From an uncultured bacterium (GTDB lineage: Bacteria > Schekmanbacteria > GWA2-38-11 > J061), in the NCBI GenBank assembly GCA_964549305.1, contig CAZJVM010000019.1, positions 1 to 28,493 on the forward strand: DNA of 28,493 bases, in the 5' to 3' direction. Position 1 is the first letter of the stretch. Each line of letters begins with the position of its first letter. Shown here piece by piece: positions 14,859 through 28,492 of this stretch. Position numbers and translations under genes: made by a program. Below the pieces are notes generated by a model. It did not search any database. It was not told where the DNA came from and was given only the letters and a program-made list of their open reading frames with translations.

Positions 14859-16391
14859 TTGCTTTCAAGAGTTGAGAGTTCATCAACAGTGGGAGTTGAG
14901 GCATATTCAGTACACGTTGAGGTGGACGTCGCGCCCGGAATGCCCGCATACAGCACTGTGGGGCTTCCCGATACTGCTGTGCGCGAAAGCCGTGAAAGAG
15001 TTAAATCGGCAATACTAAACTCAGGATTCCGTTTCCCCGCAAAGAGAATTACCGTAAATCTTGCCCCCGCGAGTATCAAAAAGGAAGGACCCGTATTCGA
15101 CCTTCCCATAGCTGCAGGAATTTTAAGCGCCAGCGACCCTCAGGCAAGAGTTTCAAGAGAGGGCTATGTAATAGCCGGAGAGCTTTCACTTGACGGAAGT
15201 ATCAGGGCTGTAAAAGGAGTACTTCCTATGGCGATAAACGCGAAGAAAAACGGCAGGCGCGGAATCATCATTCCATATCACAATCGTCTCGAAGCGTCGA
15301 TTGTGAGGGGAATCGACATAATACCCGTCTTTCGCCTTTCAGACGCTGTCGATTTTTTAAGCGGAAATAAAAATATCACGCCATTTGCATCTCAAATAGA
15401 TAAATTATTCGGTGAAAAGGAAGAAAAAGTACCGGATTTCTGTGAAGTCAAGGGACAGGAACACGCGAAAAGGGCGCTCGAGATTGCCGCGGCAGGAAAC
15501 CACAATATTCTTATGATTGGCTCCCCGGGTGCCGGCAAAACTATGCTTGCACGCCGCCTTCCCTCGATTTTACCTGCAATGACATTCGATGAGGCAATAG
15601 AATGTACACGAATTCATTCGGTAATGGGATATATTAATCCGAAATTTCCCATACTCAGCAAAAGACCCTTCAGAAGCCCTCATCACTCTATTTCAGACGC
15701 GGGGCTTATCGGGGGAGGCACATCTCCAATGCCCGGCGAGGTAAGCATTGCCCATAACGGAGTCCTTTTTCTCGATGAATTGCCGGAGTTTAGAAGAAAT
15801 GTCATCGAAGCGCTGAGACAACCCCTGGAAGACGGCAATGTAACAATATCGAGGGCAAAAAGATCGCTTACTTTTCCGTCGAGGTTTATGCTCGTTGCGG
15901 CGCTGAATCCCTGCCCCTGCGGATACAGGTTTGATGAAAGGAAGCAATGCCTCTGCACTCCCAATCAGATACAGCGCTATCTGGGAAAAGTTTCCGGACC
16001 AATGCTTGACAGGATTGATATTCATATCGAGGTGCCGTCGCTGAAATTCCGGCAGATGACGGAAGAAGCGAGAGGGGAAACATCGCGGGAAATCAGAAAA
16101 AGGGTTAACGGGGCAAGAAACATACAGATAAAAAGATATGAAGGAAGGGGAATAAATTTCAATTCGCGAATGAATCAGAATGAATTAAAGGAATTCTGCG
16201 CGCTGCATCAGGAATCGAAAGATCTTCTCGAGGCAGCAATAAAAAAATTCTCACTTTCCGCGCGCGCTTTTGACAGAATACTTAAAATCTCACGCACAAT
16301 TGCGGACCTTGAATCATCGCAAGATATAAAAACCGAACATATTGCCGAAGCAATACAGTACAGAAGTCTTGACAGGGGTGAATATCAGTGA
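14859..16391 (+). CDS. comM: ComM/YifB Mg-chelatase-like AAA+ helicase
   Basis: VGLPDTAVRESRERV, ITVNLAPA, FDLPIA, GSPGAGKT, PFRSPHHS, GVLFLDELPEF, NPCPCG, SGPMLDRID and AEAIQYR. Confidence 0.95.
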   Translation: MLSRVESSSTVGVEAYSVHVEVDVAPGMPAYSTVGLPDTAVRESRERVKSAILNSGFRFPAKRITVNLAPASIKKEGPVFDLPIAAGILSASDPQARVSREGYVIAGELSLDGSIRAVKGVLPMAINAKKNGRRGIIIPYHNRLEASIVRGIDIIPVFRLSDAVDFLSGNKNITPFASQIDKLFGEKEEKVPDFCEVKGQEHAKRALEIAAAGNHNILMIGSPGAGKTMLARRLPSILPAMTFDEAIECTRIHSVMGYINPKFPILSKRPFRSPHHSISDAGLIGGGTSPMPGEVSIAHNGVLFLDELPEFRRNVIEALRQPLEDGNVTISRAKRSLTFPSRFMLVAALNPCPCGYRFDERKQCLCTPNQIQRYLGKVSGPMLDRIDIHIEVPSLKFRQMTEEARGETSREIRKRVNGARNIQIKRYEGRGINFNSRMNQNELKEFCALHQESKDLLEAAIKKFSLSARAFDRILKISRTIADLESSQDIKTEHIAEAIQYRSLDRGEYQ

Positions 16392-16440
16392 AGTTTTCAT
16401 TTTTAGAAACTCATAAAAGGTCTGAAAAAAAAGATATAAA

Positions 16441-17328
16441 ATGAGCGGGAACAAGCTGGTAAAACATGATGAAATTAAAAACAGGATTTACACAATTCGC
16501 GGTTTGCAGGTAATGCTGGATGAAGAACTGGCAGAGTTATACGATATAAATACAAAAGTGCTTAACCAAGCTGTCAAAAGGAACAATGAACGATTTCCTG
16601 AAGAATTTATGTTTCAAATTACTGATAATGAATTCAATAGTTTGAGGTCACAAATTGTGACCTCAAACCAGAGAGGTGGAAGACGATATCTGCCTTATGT
16701 TTTTACTGAGCAGGGTGTTGCAATGCTTGCCGGAGTTCTTAAGAGCGAAACGGCAGTAAAAATGAGCATTCAAATTATCAATGCCTTTGTCGCCATGCGC
16801 CGCTTTATTAATGCCAATGCTATGATTTTTCAAAGGTTGGATACCCTTGAAATCAAACAGATTGATACGGATAAAAAAATCAATAACGTGTTAAACGCCA
16901 TTGAGAGCAAAGAAATTAAACCCAAACAGGGTATTTTCTTTGACGGACAGATTTTTGATGCTTATAAGTTTATTTCTGATTTAATCCGATCCGCGCAGAA
17001 ATCAATTATTTTAATCGACAATTATATTGATGATAACGTACTGACTCTTTTTTCAAAACGGCAAAAAGATGTTTCTTTCACGATAATGACAAAAACCATA
17101 TCAAAACAGCTGAAACTTGATGTTAATAAATTCAATAAACAATACTCACCTGTTGTATTAAAGGAATTCAAAAAGTCGCATGATCGTTTTTTGATAATTG
17201 ATGATTATATAGTATATCACTTTGGAGCTTCCCTAAAAGACCTTGGAAAAAAATGGTTTGCATTCTCAAAAATGAAGTTCGAGGCATTGGAAATGCTTAC
17301 CAGATTGGAGAATTTAGAAGAGAAATAA
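16441..17328 (+). CDS. ORF6N (KilA-N-related) DNA-binding domain fused to a PLD-like C-terminal domain
   Basis: IYTIRGLQVMLD..LAELY, LNQAVKRN..RFPEEFMFQ and YVFTEQGVAML (ORF6N); C-terminal IILIDNY, HDRFLIID and HFGASLKDLG. Confidence 0.85.
   Translation: MSGNKLVKHDEIKNRIYTIRGLQVMLDEELAELYDINTKVLNQAVKRNNERFPEEFMFQITDNEFNSLRSQIVTSNQRGGRRYLPYVFTEQGVAMLAGVLKSETAVKMSIQIINAFVAMRRFINANAMIFQRLDTLEIKQIDTDKKINNVLNAIESKEIKPKQGIFFDGQIFDAYKFISDLIRSAQKSIILIDNYIDDNVLTLFSKRQKDVSFTIMTKTISKQLKLDVNKFNKQYSPVVLKEFKKSHDRFLIIDDYIVYHFGASLKDLGKKWFAFSKMKFEALEMLTRLENLEEK
16640..16668. repeat. Perfect 14-1-14 palindrome inside the ORF6N CDS
   Basis: GTTTGAGGTCACAA-A-TTGTGACCTCAAAC, encoding (S)LRSQIVTSN. Confidence 0.97.
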
Positions 17329-17394
17329 CTCGGTCCATAATTAAAAAACAATTTCTCACATAGAGAAAATATAAATCCCATAAATATAAATTAC

Positions 17395-18366
17395 CTAATC
17401 ATCAAGCTTTCTTCTCTTGCCTAAATCTGTTTTTGCAGCCAATTCTTCAGGATAAGGATTGAGAAATCTTTGATTTAAAAGATATTTTTCATCAAAACGA
17501 AGTGCCAGGGAACGAATCAGATTACAGGGGACACTAAGAGATATCTTTTTATTCCTGAATTCTTCAACAATGCTTAAAAATTTTTTTTTCTCTTTATATG
17601 AGAGTTTTTTTGAGACAAAACCAAAAGCGTGAAGAAGAACATTAATCCGGGATTTCCGCGACGGTTTTTTCGATAAAAGTTCATTCATAACATTTTCATA
17701 GTTTAAAATCACTTTTTTAACAGATTTCTTCTCTAAATTTGCAGTAATCAATCCAAGTTTCCGCATATTCACCTCATTATAGGAAAGAAACAGGAATTTA
17801 CATTCATTTTGAAAATTTATTAATGATTTCATAGATAAATGGGATTTAATTCTTCTAAATAAGGCATTTATAAAAATTCTTGTCAAAAAATTTTCTATTA
17901 TCTCGTATTTTTTTAATTTAATCTCATCTTCTACAGGTAGAGTGGGATATGCAGACATAACACATTCAGCAAAAAGGCCTGCGCCTTTGGTTGTGCCGGC
18001 TCTTTTTTTTATACTCTCGTAAATTTTTACATCCCTCAGTCCGCAGGAGGGTGAGCGGCTTTTAAGAATTGCGCCGTCAATCTCTCTTAAATTCGATAAA
18101 AAATTCTTTGAAAATGATACAATTGACCTTGTGTGGTATTTTCCTGTTCCCGGCTGATATATCTTTCTTTTTCCGTTTTGAGATACAATTCGAATCGGTT
18201 CACGGGGCACACCCAATCCTGCTTCCGTCTCAGGGCACAGGGGAATGAAGGTTACATATTTCCTCAGAGATTCGACAAACGGGTCATCTATTTTTTCTCC
18301 GTTATATCTGCAGGCGGCAAATCCGAGGCATTTACTTACAAGAATTATTGGTTTATTATCATTCAT
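17395..18366 (-). CDS. DUF523 (TudS-like Fe-S domain) plus DUF1722/YbgA protein
   Basis: VSKCLG..CRYNG, CPE...GLGVPREPIR, KSRSPSCG and GLFA; C-terminal NVLLHAFGF and YLLNQRFLNPYPEEL. Confidence 0.85.
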   Translation of the reverse strand: MNDNKPIILVSKCLGFAACRYNGEKIDDPFVESLRKYVTFIPLCPETEAGLGVPREPIRIVSQNGKRKIYQPGTGKYHTRSIVSFSKNFLSNLREIDGAILKSRSPSCGLRDVKIYESIKKRAGTTKGAGLFAECVMSAYPTLPVEDEIKLKKYEIIENFLTRIFINALFRRIKSHLSMKSLINFQNECKFLFLSYNEVNMRKLGLITANLEKKSVKKVILNYENVMNELLSKKPSRKSRINVLLHAFGFVSKKLSYKEKKKFLSIVEEFRNKKISLSVPCNLIRSLALRFDEKYLLNQRFLNPYPEELAAKTDLGKRRKLDD

Positions 18367-20471: not shown

Positions 20472-20553
20472 TTTAACTCCCTCCCTTTTTTTGAGAAAGG
20501 ATAAAATAAATTCCCTGTCAATGCAAGATTCAAAAGGTGGCGTGAATTAAAAA

Positions 20554-20569
20554 TGTTCCACGTGGAACA
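20554..20569. promoter_or_regulatory. parS site 1
   Basis: Perfect TGTTCCACGTGGAACA, upstream of parAB. Confidence 0.95.
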
Positions 20570-20778
20570 TTTCACCCTGTTAAAAAGATGTTTAAAAGTT
20601 TATATTTTTATAACCGAAATCTTTATCTATTTGATTTTAAAGGTTTTTTATTGCCAAAACCCTTTTTTTCTTTATTAACAGGTTATCAACACTAAAAATA
20701 TCTGAAACAAAAAAAAGACCTTTGCTTTTTTATCTCCTTTGTGCTTATCTTGTGAAGGAGCTTTTAAAATATTTTAAA

Positions 20779-20794
20779 TGTTCCACGTGGAACA
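20779..20794. promoter_or_regulatory. parS site 2
   Basis: Perfect TGTTCCACGTGGAACA, about 85 bp upstream of parA. Confidence 0.95.
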
Positions 20795-20878
20795 TTTTTC
20801 AAGCTTGTATTTTTCTGTTGCCCATATTTTTTGAGTTCTGTAGTATGGGCTTGGTTTTTAATTTCCTTTGACTCATAG

Positions 20879-21670
20879 ATGGCTTATCAAAAAATGGGAA
20901 AGGTTATTGCCATAGCAAACCAGAAGGGAGGAGTGGGTAAAACCACGACCTCAATCAACCTTTCTGCCTGTCTCGGTAAAAAAGGGATAAGCACCCTTCT
21001 AATAGACCTCGACCCTCAGGGAAACGCAACAAGCGGACTTGGACTGAATCACGCAGGCACCACTAAATCCATTTATCGCGCTATTCTCGGCAGGAAAACA
21101 ATATCGGAAGTGCTCGCTGACAGCGTTTTTCCTCAACTTAAGGTAATTCCCTCCACAGACGAGCTTTTCGGCGCGGAGGTAGAACTTATGGATGTTTCAC
21201 CGCGCGAATCCCTTCTGAAAAGCTGTCTTGGCGACATAATCGACGATTTCCAGTATATCATCATAGACTGCCCACCGTCACTTGGCGTTTTAACCGTAAA
21301 TGCCCTTTGCGCGGCGGATTCCGTCCTAATTCCTCTTCAGTGTGAATACTACGCCCTCGAAGGCGTTGCTCAAATTCTCACCACAATCGGCAAAATAAAG
21401 GAAGCGCTCAATCCCGGACTCTACATTGAAGGAATTCTCCTTACAATGCAGGATTTAAGGACAAATCTTTCCGGCGAAGTATGTGAAAATGTGAGGGAAC
21501 AATTTGGGGATAAAGTGTTTAAAACGGTAATTCCGAGAAATGTACGCCTCTCTGAAGCGCCGAGTTATGGACAACCTATTATTCTTTATGACCCGAATTC
21601 AAAGGGCGCGGAAACCTATAAACAACTTACAGAGGAAATTATAAACAATGAAAAGGAAATCGCTGGGTAA
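20879..21670 (+). CDS. parA: Chromosome partitioning ATPase ParA/Soj
   Basis: ANQKGGVGKTTT, DLDPQGNAT, IIDCPPSLG, QCEYYALEG and IPRNVRLSEAPSYG. Start could be ATG 20894. Confidence 0.97.
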   Translation: MAYQKMGKVIAIANQKGGVGKTTTSINLSACLGKKGISTLLIDLDPQGNATSGLGLNHAGTTKSIYRAILGRKTISEVLADSVFPQLKVIPSTDELFGAEVELMDVSPRESLLKSCLGDIIDDFQYIIIDCPPSLGVLTVNALCAADSVLIPLQCEYYALEGVAQILTTIGKIKEALNPGLYIEGILLTMQDLRTNLSGEVCENVREQFGDKVFKTVIPRNVRLSEAPSYGQPIILYDPNSKGAETYKQLTEEIINNEKEIAG

Positions 21671-22508
21671 GGGACTGGACGCGTTAATATCGCCAAAAGG
21701 CAAAATAGACGGTGATAAAAAAGATTATGTTTCCAATATTGAAGTAAAGGATATAAAACCGGGACCTCATCAGCCAAGAAAAAGCTTTGACGACGACAAG
21801 ATGAAAGAGCTCATATCTTCAATCAGGACAAAAGGCGTCATTCAGCCGATTCTCGTGAAGAAAACAGGGAAACACTTTACCATTATCGCCGGTGAAAGAA
21901 GGTGGAGAGCGGCTAAAAAGGCAGATCTCAAGAAAATCCCCGCAATTATAAAGAATATTTCAAATAAAGAGCTTGAGGAGATAGCGCTGATTGAAAACAT
22001 TCAGCGCGAGGATTTAAATCCCATCGAGGAAGCACAGGCATACAAACACCTTATGGAAGACCACAACCTGAACCAGAATGAGCTTGCATCGTTAGTTGGA
22101 AAGGAAAGAAGCACCATAACAAACTACCTAAGATTACTGAAACTTCCAAAAAAGGTGAGAAACTATCTACTTGAAAACAAAATATCGATGGGGCATGCAC
22201 GCGTTTTATGCGGTGTCGACGATGAAGCAAAACAGACTGACCTTGCGGAAATGATTATCAGAGACAATCTGTCCGTACGACAAACCGAAAAAATTGCTTC
22301 TAAAGGAATTAAAGTCGAAAAAAAGAAAAAAGAACACAAAGGCAAACAGGTTTCTCCGGAAATTCTTTCCCTCGAGGAAAAGTTGAGAAGCGCTCTTGCA
22401 ACAAAGGTAAAGCTTTCTCATAACGAAAAGACAAACCACGGAAAGATTACCATCGAATATTACTCCCTTGATGAATTGGACAGGATGCTGGACATACTAA
22501 CTGAATAA
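21648..22508 (+). CDS. parB: Chromosome partitioning CTPase ParB/Spo0J
   Basis: LGKGLDALI, QPRK.F, GVIQPI, IIAGERRWRA, ENIQREDLNPIEEA, HTH GKERSTITNYLRLL and GHAR. Confidence 0.97.
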   Translation: MKRKSLGKGLDALISPKGKIDGDKKDYVSNIEVKDIKPGPHQPRKSFDDDKMKELISSIRTKGVIQPILVKKTGKHFTIIAGERRWRAAKKADLKKIPAIIKNISNKELEEIALIENIQREDLNPIEEAQAYKHLMEDHNLNQNELASLVGKERSTITNYLRLLKLPKKVRNYLLENKISMGHARVLCGVDDEAKQTDLAEMIIRDNLSVRQTEKIASKGIKVEKKKKEHKGKQVSPEILSLEEKLRSALATKVKLSHNEKTNHGKITIEYYSLDELDRMLDILTE

Positions 22509-27844: not shown

Positions 27845-28492
27845 ATGAAACCCGAAGGATCAAAAGGCGAAATCATTATCTATAAACCGCAAAAGGGAGA
27901 AGGCCATATCGAAGTACATCTTGAAGATGAAACCGTATGGTTGACACAGGCACAGATGGTAAAACTGTTTCAAAAAACAAAGCAAAATATAAGTCTTCAT
28001 ATTCGCAATATATTCAAAGAAGGTGAATTAAATAAGAAATCAGTTGTCAAGGATTCCTTGACAACTGCCAAAGATGGAAAAAGATATAAAACACAATATT
28101 ACAACCTGGATGTTATTATTTCCGTAGGTTATCGTGTCAGGTCAAAACGGGGCACCCAATTTCGTATCTGGGCAACTACCGTGTTAAAAGACAACCTTAT
28201 CAATGGGTATTCCATCAACGAGAAGCGGCTAAAAGAACAAAACATCCGGTTGCAGGATCTTCAAAAAACCGTGAACCTGATGGGACGCCTTCTCGATGTC
28301 AAGGAATTGGATCAAAACGAAACGGCTGGACTGTTTAAAGTAATAACCGATTACTCATATGCTCTTACTGTTCTTGACCGCTATGACCGGTCAAAGCTTA
28401 AAATTCAAAAAACTACCTGCAAAAAAGAATTTGTTCTGACATATGAAAAAGCATGTTCGGTAATTTCACTACTCGGCAAAGAACTCAAAAAT
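27845..28492 (+). CDS. RhuM-family protein, probably a RhuM-Fic/Doc fusion; truncated at the window end and absent from the ORF track
   Basis: Manual translation: MKPEGSKGEIIIY...ETVWLTQAQMVKLFQKTKQNISLHIRNIFKEGEL...YNLDVIISVGYRVRSKRGTQFRIWAT...DYSYALTVLDRYD. AGGA RBS upstream and no stop before the window end. Confidence 0.85.
   Translation, partial: MKPEGSKGEIIIYKPQKGEGHIEVHLEDETVWLTQAQMVKLFQKTKQNISLHIRNIFKEGELNKKSVVKDSLTTAKDGKRYKTQYYNLDVIISVGYRVRSKRGTQFRIWATTVLKDNLINGYSINEKRLKEQNIRLQDLQKTVNLMGRLLDVKELDQNETAGLFKVITDYSYALTVLDRYDRSKLKIQKTTCKKEFVLTYEKACSVISLLGKELKN
28041..28067. repeat. Perfect 13-1-13 palindrome inside the RhuM CDS
   Basis: CAGTTGTCAAGGA-T-TCCTTGACAACTG, encoding SVVKDSLTT(A). 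Confidence 0.97.

Follow-up and report, generated by a model that had tools for sequence, protein, structure and literature searches.

A perfect 29-bp palindrome lies within a protein-coding gene of the 28,493-nucleotide stretch of uncultured bacterial DNA analysed here (contig CAZJVM010000019.1; hereafter the window), and what relatives of this gene have conserved is the nucleotide symmetry of the element, not the peptide that it encodes. The gene, of 295 codons on the forward strand (positions 16441–17328), carries an ORF6N domain, and the palindrome, GTTTGAGGTCACAA-A-TTGTGACCTCAAAC (16640–16668, without strand), was recovered inside that domain by repeat search, by single-strand folding and among homologues. 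The peptide LRSQIVTS is a by-product dictated by the DNA. We consider it somewhat better than an even bet (a probability of roughly 0.55) that the 29-mer is a DNA-level inverted repeat, capable of forming a hairpin or cruciform, which has been kept symmetric over very long evolution by concerted changes of its two arms within a permissive linker of the ORF6N nucleic-acid-binding domain.

The two arms (16640–16653 and 16655–16668), 14 nucleotides each and 100% complementary, stand 1 nucleotide apart around position 16654, the first base of the Ile72 codon. Codons 67–76 (16639–16668, forward strand), followed here by translation, in an AlphaFold2 model and by codon entropy, read SLRSQIVTSN between the flanking RFPEEFMFQ and GGRRYLPYVFTEQG. 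The in-frame 14-1-14 inverted repeat inside the ORF6N domain that the initial annotation of this DNA had pointed out is confirmed by the sequence and by repeat search, and its judgement that chance is a very unlikely source holds as well, the 29-mer having 0 matches in 100 dinucleotide shuffles. With arms of at least 13 and a loop of at most 5, the window gave 3 counts of perfect palindromes, which amount to two sites because the 14-1-14 element also scores as 13-3-13, and the 100 shuffles gave 3 counts altogether, all within one shuffle; a chance origin of the 29-mer was rejected on these counts. Folded as single-stranded DNA, the palindrome forms a 13-bp stem with a 3-nucleotide loop at −13.8 kcal/mol (z −7.18), and 0 of 200 shuffles were as stable. 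Both the ORF6N gene and the 29-mer, allowing up to 3 mismatches, are single-copy in the genome of 2,943,108 bases; with one site in 2.94 Mb at no more than 3 mismatches, a dispersed palindromic mobile element of the repetitive extragenic palindrome (REP) or Rickettsia palindromic element (RPE) type was rejected. Directly 3′ of the palindrome comes CAGAGAGGTGG. The lack of a T-run after the hairpin and the position in the middle of the gene rule out an intrinsic transcription terminator. An internal Shine-Dalgarno sequence with a GTG start was also discarded, GAGG not being retained in the K, I or W variants, as was a CRP-like or lac-operator-like site, the half-site arrangement of which differs from the one seen here.

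The symmetry is not a consequence of the encoded peptide. For 90 non-redundant loci, 200 synonymous resamples were drawn for each from its own codon usage combined with the family usage outside the element. The mean number of complementary arm positions was 12.26 of 14 in the observed sequences and 5.24 after resampling, the observed pair count exceeded all 200 resamples in 82 of the 90 loci, and the mean folding energy (ViennaRNA default RNA parameters) was −15.5 kcal/mol compared with −3.5 kcal/mol for the resamples, which rules out a peptide-driven artefact. Among sequences sharing the majority amino acid, synonymous codon entropy collapses in codons 68–76 only, and elsewhere in the domain the choice is free: R69 is written AGG in 57 of 68 sequences, compared with 6 of 98 at R20 and again 6 of 98 at R51, and I72 is ATT in 52 of 53, compared with 39 of 78 at I12. 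V73 is GTG in 50 of 55, T74 is ACC in 60 of 71, and S75 is TCA in 66 of 71.

Where the residues do change, the two arms change together. The initial annotation took this segment to be variable among ORF6N homologues; this is not so of Q71, conserved in at least 90% of them, and is so of the remaining residues of the palindrome peptide, which vary in coupled pairs. Paired codon changes that alter residues include TCA...GTG (S..V), TCG...GCG (S..A), TTC...GGA (F..G) and TGC...GGC (C..G), and longer ones TTGAGG...CCTCAA (LR..TS), TGGAAA...TTTCCA (WK..IS) and TTGATA...TATCAA (LI..IS). In an alignment of 90 sequences (A2), paired cells made up 80.1% compared with 70.2 ± 0.6% after shuffling, with 0 of 500 shuffles reaching the observed value, though cell counts of this kind overstate the number of independent events. 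The covariation score was 0.301 compared with 0.136 shuffled (again 0 of 500), and it fell to 0.06–0.10 when partners were slid by 1–3 columns. Pairs changing on both sides numbered 14 of 17, and stem cells altered on one side only were near zero. On a tree of the homologues, the minimum number of switches between fully complementary states, a rough minimum in each case, was 15 for offsets 5,4 (shuffled labels: mean 25.0, minimum 21), 8 for offsets 8,7 (mean 8.9, minimum 8, so that the observed count equals the shuffled minimum) and 25 for offsets 13–10 (mean 31.8, minimum 27). Symmetry and covariation extend over 14–20 bp per arm. The proposals that the DNA does double duty and that codon-aligned homologues with different peptides would stay palindromic are thereby upheld: symmetry is kept through peptide change by two-arm changes, far beyond synonymously shuffled controls.

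A second reading frame also separates DNA from peptide. Among distinct sequences with arms of at least 8, 79 place the palindrome centre in codon phase 0 and 9 place it in phase 1, and the phase-1 class encodes ..E[LV]VANCD[HR]L.. or ..ELITICDKL... The stretch GGTCGCAAATTGCGACC is read in locus L179 as (A)GG TCG CAA ATT GCG ACC, giving RSQIAT, and in L192–L194 as GTC GCA AAT TGC GAC, giving VANCD; likewise TCACAATTTGTGA gives SQFV in one frame class and ITICD in the other. Common to both frame classes is the core TC[AG]CAA-W-TTG[CT]GA (W being A or T). Since the same core DNA is translated in two frames, the conserved unit is this core with its symmetric extension rather than any peptide.

The surrounding protein segment seems well suited to tolerate such an element. 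The alignment is gappy and length-variable on both sides of the palindrome, and many of the longer-loop homologues listed have a second or third LRSQ-type unit 12–13 codons apart. L003, L035, L051 and L079 have two units that are both perfect palindromes, each of a different sequence, those of L035 being TTTGAGGTGCCAAaTTGGCACCTCAAA and TTTTTTGAGGTCACAAtTTGTGACCTCAAAAAA; tandem units, two or three in number and each self-complementary with its own arm sequence, were seen in these four loci, in L012 and in others. In the AlphaFold2 model the palindrome peptide spans the end of helix 62–71 plus the start of loop 72–85; residues 71–80 have a mean predicted local distance difference test score (pLDDT) of 64, this loop being the sole low-confidence stretch of the N-terminal domain. 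Judged by the gappy alignment, the tandem units and the low-confidence loop of the model, the palindrome sits in what appears to be a permissive protein linker.

Retention of the element among homologues was followed in two samples. The first (set 1) took the best 80 of 594 relatives from a scan of one genome per species; their identity over the domain is 54–69%, and they represent many bacterial phyla as well as archaea (titles including Nanoarchaeota, Methanosarcinales and Woesearchaeota), and a scan of viral contigs supplied 80 further ORF6N relatives. Among the first 61 loci without an indel in the ten codons, 14 of the 14 in-register positions were complementary in 18 loci, 13 in 12, 12 in 15, 11 in 12, 10 in 3 and 3 in 1. 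Among 98 representatives at less than 85% nucleotide identity, Watson-Crick pairs numbered 14 in 20, 13 in 21, 12 in 28, 11 in 16, 10 in 8 and fewer than 10 in 5, with the palindrome centre on the same base in 90 of the 98; several low-scoring loci have a second, perfect unit a few codons away. For the second sample the Pfam model was the only criterion; it covered 121 genomes of the phylum of Epilithonimonas mollis (Bacteroidota), 37 of which had an ORF6N match. At least 9 of 12 pairs (offsets 2–13) were present at the site in 58 of its 59 distinct full-length ORF6N matches, and the last one had 8 of 12.

The element is tied to the ORF6N domain family whatever the C-terminal domain. The C-terminal domain of the window gene, with its phospholipase D-like (PLD-like) fold, is present in 35 of 97 representatives, absent from 61, mostly proteins of 136–214 amino acids, and cut by the contig end in 1; for 58 of 60 short forms no such C-terminal domain was found within 1.5 kb. 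Since most carriers of the palindrome are without it, this domain is not required for the palindrome. A search for ORF6N in cultured phages gave 5 records only, all of them uncultured, and hence no model phage.

A second gene family of the window has an element of the same kind. The window's only other long perfect palindrome, also found by repeat search, is a 13-1-13 repeat, CAGTTGTCAAGGA-T-TCCTTGACAACTG (28041–28067, without strand), which encodes SVVKDSLTTA in a RhuM-family gene (Pfam PF13310; 27845–28492, forward strand, cut by the window end; Virulence_RhuM, E = 1.3e-24, residues 66–153). All 30 of the best RhuM loci in those 121 genomes reach 10 or more pairs out of 13 at the aligned site, one of them with a shift of 3 nucleotides. 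The RhuM arms are far more varied than those of ORF6N, with 18 distinct 8-mers among 31 sequences, and the peptides follow the arms (VKDSLT, VRNFRT, CAKFAH, VSILET, TEKISV). The covariation score was 0.663 compared with 0.243 shuffled (0 of 500), both members have changed in 13 of 14 pairs, and one-sided changes are nearly absent. Profile comparison of ORF6N with RhuM did not establish homology (probability 1.6%, 19 columns, in the helix-turn-helix region), so that the like placement of their palindromes amounts to an analogy and does not demonstrate common descent.

Two related families, Rha (loci L293–L322) and Bro-N (loci L254–L288), sampled from 151 genomes of the phylum to which a Gammaproteobacteria genome belongs, are enriched for a palindrome at a fixed position in the domain. 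For Rha, at least 10 of 12 pairs were found in 23 of 29 matches compared with 26 of 262 flank windows, with the centre about 108 nucleotides into the domain; for Bro-N, the same threshold was reached in 13 of 27 matches compared with 27 of 272 flank windows, and the best centre fell at nucleotides 124–157 in 23 of the 27. The Rha core, CGC AAT TTT GCG (RNFA), is a third reading of the ..GCAA..TTGC.. core. Among six Rha genes of named phages (L323–L328), four have a short palindrome at the site, with 10 of 12 pairs in ICP1 gp87.8 and SPbeta yoqD and 9 of 12 in two others. In the 121 genomes of the Epilithonimonas phylum a Rha match occurred in 1 only, which is actually an ORF6N gene.

Elements of this kind are rare elsewhere in the genome of the window. 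The 2,943,108 bases contain 22 perfect palindromes with arms of at least 12 and a loop of at most 5, many of which have A-run and T-run flanks, lie outside long open frames and look like terminators. Seven of the 22 lie in open frames of at least 190 amino acids, and two of these seven are the ORF6N and RhuM genes. Of the other five, four have arms of 12–15: C110:3170–3203 is in an open reading frame of 287 amino acids and C2:66556–66583 in one of 191, neither with a Pfam match, C59:12999–13024 is in a TorD-like chaperone gene, and C5:32012–32040 is in the HATPase_c region of a hybrid histidine kinase; the fifth, on C15, has a terminator-like appearance.

These observations bear on whether the symmetry needs any function at all. 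A quasipalindrome in a tolerant loop might perpetuate itself neutrally, template switching recopying the arms so that symmetry persists and drifts without serving any purpose. The concerted changes, the near absence of one-sided cells and the lack of wobble intermediates are what such a process would leave; the central segments that occur as inversion pairs, described below, are predicted by spacer inversion, and the RhuM arms drift widely yet stay complementary. Published models have imperfect inverted repeats preferentially corrected to perfect ones by template switching (PMC5941160), in keeping with this explanation. Against it stand the retention of the element in 58 of 59 ORF6N matches and 30 of 30 RhuM loci despite the tolerant loop, the conservation of the ORF6N core over two reading frames, and the expectation that neutral palindromes should build up in tolerant loops of many genes, where this genome has 7 in long frames, 2 of them in these related gene types. 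We regard neutral maintenance as unlikely.

We next weigh the form in which the symmetry might be read, as RNA or as DNA. A hairpin in the sense mRNA, acting on translation (ribosome pausing for domain folding) or on transcript stability or processing, would function in any host, and it would be stable, the window palindrome folding at −20.0 kcal/mol as RNA and the homologues well below their synonymous resamples, as given above. The arms covary, preserving pairing as an RNA hairpin requires, and lie at a fixed distance from the start codon. The pattern of departures from symmetry is nevertheless more like that of a DNA than of an RNA. Mismatches at offsets 3–14 comprise 20 G.T, 58 A.C and 56 transversions where resampling leads one to expect 92, 160 and 446, so that G.U is no better tolerated than other mismatches; the synonymous wobble codons are nearly avoided (T74 as ACT in 3 of 71, S75 as TCG in 0 of 71), and G.U cells account for about 15 of roughly 980 stem cells in ORF6N alignment A2 and 2 of about 310 in RhuM. 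The centre is also indifferent to strand. Its base is A in 57 sequences, T in 29, G in 2 and C in 1, and the central 5-mers come in reverse-complement pairs (AAATT 45 and AATTT 22, AGATT 6 and AATCT 4, AAAAT 4 and ATTTT 2); for 29 of 89 sequences the reverse complement of their own 21-mer is another member of the set. A central segment present in both orientations would mean two different loops if it were RNA, not the strand-specific loop of an RNA element. A permissive Rfam search of positions 16000–17600 gave 11 weak matches, none near its gathering score, and the lack of a T-run speaks against a terminator hairpin. The element is DNA-like and strand-symmetric and does not tolerate wobble; the mRNA hairpin, which the initial annotation had listed among its alternatives, is disfavoured on these grounds and seems to us quite improbable.

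The same annotation favoured a protein reader of a particular kind: an intragenic operator bound in a sequence-specific manner by the encoded dimer, perhaps through the very peptide that the palindrome encodes, with protein and site co-varying in a self-addressing system. A perfect dyad does occur within a gene whose product is predicted to bind DNA and to have a long helix and a TrmBL2-like architecture, as it does for intragenic operators of the parS-in-parB type, and parS inside spo0J and pac inside small-terminase genes are precedents for a site within the gene of its own protein. The core TC[AG]CAA-W-TTG[CT]GA is conserved, the element is linked to the domain family and not to the C-terminal domain, and the peptide co-varies with the site by construction. 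The encoded peptide nonetheless fits poorly as a reading head. The second frame turns the same DNA into an unrelated peptide (RSQIAT versus VANCD), tandem units within one gene differ from each other, and the peptide lies in a low-confidence loop; a stereochemical code connecting a peptide with its own encoding DNA is not known. Symmetry and covariation over 14–20 bp per arm are beyond what a dimer half-site would be expected to read, the switches are many and independent (at least 25 in the outer positions), and paralogues within one genome differ on average at 4.56 arm positions compared with 4.40 for random family pairs, with identical arms in 1 of 41 within-genome paralogue pairs compared with a background of 1.8%. 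Nor did we find the constraint confined to contacted half-site positions, with further sites at the promoter or elsewhere, that marks an operator. We think a self-addressing operator very unlikely.

The remaining alternative considered was a recombination or breakage hotspot at which gene halves would be exchanged among family members by domain shuffling. Palindromes are recombinogenic, the superfamily is known for shuffled architectures, and the C-terminal domains do differ among carriers. The correlation of distances between the two gene halves, r = 0.303, is similar to that of random column partitions (0.347 ± 0.048) and of other split points; the site is in the middle of a domain and not at a domain boundary, and it is single-copy in the genome of the window. 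Such a hotspot is highly improbable. Of the diversification site through a hairpin or cruciform that the initial annotation had also entertained, the hairpin or cruciform is the part that fits best; as regards diversification, the analysis covered a crossover hotspot, of which there was no sign.

Let us return, then, to an inverted repeat acting at the level of DNA. The property under selection would be intrastrand pairing, in a DNA hairpin or cruciform with arms of 12–17 bp and an A/T-rich centre (CAA-W-TTG), and A/T-rich centres favour cruciform extrusion. We infer intrastrand pairing because symmetry covaries over the full 14–20 bp of each arm and because the RhuM arm sequence is nearly free. 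Perfect symmetry might be restored by copying one arm from the other, as in quasipalindrome template switching; the absence of intermediates and the inverted centres fit such arm-to-arm copying. Selection, and not template switching alone, would then retain the element, since hardly any family member lacks it even though the loop tolerates insertions, duplications and a shift of frame, since the ORF6N core is conserved across frames, and since very few other genes of the genome contain a comparable palindrome in their coding sequence. Its most likely function would be that of a cis-acting site of its own gene, probably recognised as a structure by the DNA-binding product of that gene. Recognition by the gene's own product is plausible because the encoded domain is the only thing common to all carriers. 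The result would be a host-independent control or sensing site for a horizontally mobile, probably toxic gene of phage conflict.

One may extend this scenario further, and we do so tentatively, thinking the extension rather unlikely. Bro-N-like domains at large (ORF6N, RhuM, Rha and Bro-N) might be structure-specific binders of DNA hairpins or cruciforms, each gene holding its own target in its coding sequence. Toxic genes involved in conflicts between phage and host would in this way possess a control or sensing module that addresses itself and does not depend on the host. The protein, bound to the hairpin or cruciform formed in the gene that encodes it, would be released or titrated by invading DNA or by a change of supercoiling. 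If this were so, the palindrome would be one of the defining features of the family, overlooked until now, and the peptide there would be dictated by the DNA.

Several considerations weigh against our preferred reading of the palindrome as a selected DNA structure. Set 1 was drawn with peptide patterns, one of which (TDNEFNSL) overlaps codons 67–68, a bias that the second sample, selected purely by Pfam model, was meant to address. Most homologues come from metagenome-assembled genomes, they are mutually related, and the tree behind the switch counts was built with FastTree from about 100 columns, the palindrome columns excluded. The cruciform itself is a difficulty, extrusion by arms of 13–14 bp being kinetically hard in vivo. 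Template switching alone accounts for the concerted changes without any function, and the case against neutral maintenance, retention and rarity in other genes, is indirect on both counts. The absence of wobble would be equally expected of an RNA hairpin that had to be a perfect duplex. The paralogue comparison given above shows no divergence of sites within a genome, and no recombination signal was seen at the palindrome in the half-gene correlation. Extra half-sites with one mismatch within 1.5 kb numbered 63 compared with 55 in the control, which is no excess; exact half-site matches within the same distance numbered 7 compared with 1.6, a small excess, and were found in the tandem-unit loci L033, L035 and L040 and in L015, L039 and L078. 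Since the genome also holds the palindrome only once, any regulator would have no more than this one site to act on. Lastly, the feature is weaker in the Rha genes of cultured phages: no strong palindrome was found at the Rha site in rha of phage BTP1, a member of Lederbergvirus, the genus of P22, or in a Bacteroides phage gene. The same BTP1 result led us to drop a link of the palindrome to IHF, which is reported to regulate rha of phi80 and P22 (PMC4936722).

The gene that carries the palindrome was delimited by its open reading frame, by profiles and by Foldseek, and consists of the ORF6N domain, a long helix and the C-terminal domain mentioned earlier. The ORF6N match (Pfam PF10543; residues 14–99, positions 16480–16737, forward strand) covers model positions 1–86 of 86 at 125 bits, against a cut-off of 27.8 (E = 1.5e-36); the scan of genomes of the phylum scored the same stretch at 125.9 bits. 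Over residues 5–291 the protein also matches PADLOC profile PDLC04869 of PDC-S05 (E = 5.9e-127; profile positions 10–302 of 306), and it is accordingly a candidate phage-defence gene, PDC-S05 being a PADLOC candidate; its PHROGs matches are to anti-repressor families. The AlphaFold2 model, built from a 71-sequence alignment, has a mean pLDDT of 91.4 and is laid out as an N-terminal helix/strand domain, a long helix (103–156) and a C-terminal alpha/beta domain. In Foldseek the whole model resembles in architecture the archaeal chromatin protein TrmBL2 (E = 1.4e-05). By AlphaFold2 secondary structure and Foldseek, the C-terminal alpha/beta domain (about residues 160–295, positions 16918–17325, forward strand) is predicted to have a PLD-like fold, resembling NucT, Zucchini and PLD (E about 1e-04). 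Within it, at about 17180–17260 (residues about 247–275), the consensus of alignment A1 shows a conserved H-D-R...KD..KK..GF pattern, at a place where PLD enzymes have H-x-K. Sequence similarity gave no significant match to solved structures (best E = 0.15), and prediction of a homodimer of the product scored 0.28 against a mark of 0.42, giving no verdict either way.

The ORF6N gene stands alone among housekeeping genes. Upstream lies a Mg-chelatase/YifB-like gene; its downstream neighbour, on the opposite strand, is a 2-thiouracil desulfurase/DUF1722 gene. Five genomes of the window's phylum were examined; 4 had an ORF6N match, one of these with three copies, and the other genome of the window's own genus had none. 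Elsewhere in the window, two identical 22-bp perfect palindromes, AAATGTTCCACGTGGAACATTT, stand at 20551–20572 and 20776–20797, intergenic and upstream of parA (20879–21670) and parB (21648–22508); they resemble the parS consensus and are probably partition sites. As to the activity of the family, one preprint reports, for a PDC-S05 representative in E. coli B, a drop in plating of about 1000-fold for T7 and T5 and of about 10-fold for T4, and it describes that representative with a RhuM domain, hence with an architecture other than that of the window gene (10.1101/2024.09.26.614923).

Irrespective of the details of the model, elements that force a protein to follow its DNA, rather than the reverse, are rare, and this palindrome has outlasted changes of amino acids, reading frame, copy number and domain architecture in a very widespread family of phage conflict. 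If it is functional, a part of the working or control of ORF6N, RhuM and possibly Rha and Bro-N genes, including candidate single-gene defence systems, has been missing from their description; cloning would be affected, and codon optimisation would destroy the palindrome. If template switching alone maintains it, it would show in nature, and with unusual clarity, how a mutational process can shape protein sequence over deep time. In either case it offers a simple nucleotide signature by which such genes may be recognised. Our literature search, which left subscription journals largely outside, found no description of a palindrome in ORF6N, PDC-S05, Bro-N, KilA-N or RhuM genes, and the core 13-mers matched only an unrelated table of CRISPR-like repeats.

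Known systems resemble this element in part. The DNA site of a protein lies within the protein's own gene in the case of parS in spo0J/parB, pac in small-terminase genes and the origins in pT181 repC and phiX174 gene A. As in the ORF6N genes, these are dyad or hairpin-forming sites inside the gene of a DNA-acting protein, the pT181 origin being a cruciform-forming repeat. In those systems binding or nicking has been demonstrated, the sequence of the site is conserved and its function (segregation, packaging or replication) is known, whereas the ORF6N element covaries along its length and its gene stands alone between housekeeping genes. Cis-acting replication elements of viruses share with it local suppression of synonymous variation and covariation inside an open reading frame; RNA elements of this sort tolerate G.U and have strand-specific loops, and the ORF6N element shows neither and has no Rfam match. 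Rickettsia palindromic elements are palindromic DNA translated within proteins, in tolerant surface segments; they are, however, mobile repeats dispersed over many unrelated genes of one genome, where the ORF6N element is single-copy and family-specific.

Two further comparisons come closer to the way in which the symmetry may be maintained. In quasipalindrome correction the arms are made to match without passing through intermediates, spacers become inverted and perfect repeats prove more conserved than expected (PMC5941160), all of which is recognisable here. That is a genome-wide mutational process, in contrast to an element bound to one family and almost never lost, and this tie to a gene family suggests selection on top of template switching. 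In hairworm mitochondria, perfect inverted repeats lie in functional protein-coding sequence (PMC6649704), and there as here protein coding and a strict potential for secondary structure have been preserved together. The hairworm repeats are many per genome, reach 284 bp, fall in conserved protein regions and are limited to a few mitochondrial lineages. The ORF6N element, in contrast, is single, with arms of 12–17 bp, at one fixed site of one domain family and in a permissive loop, and it has been kept across bacteria, archaea and viral contigs and in two reading frames.

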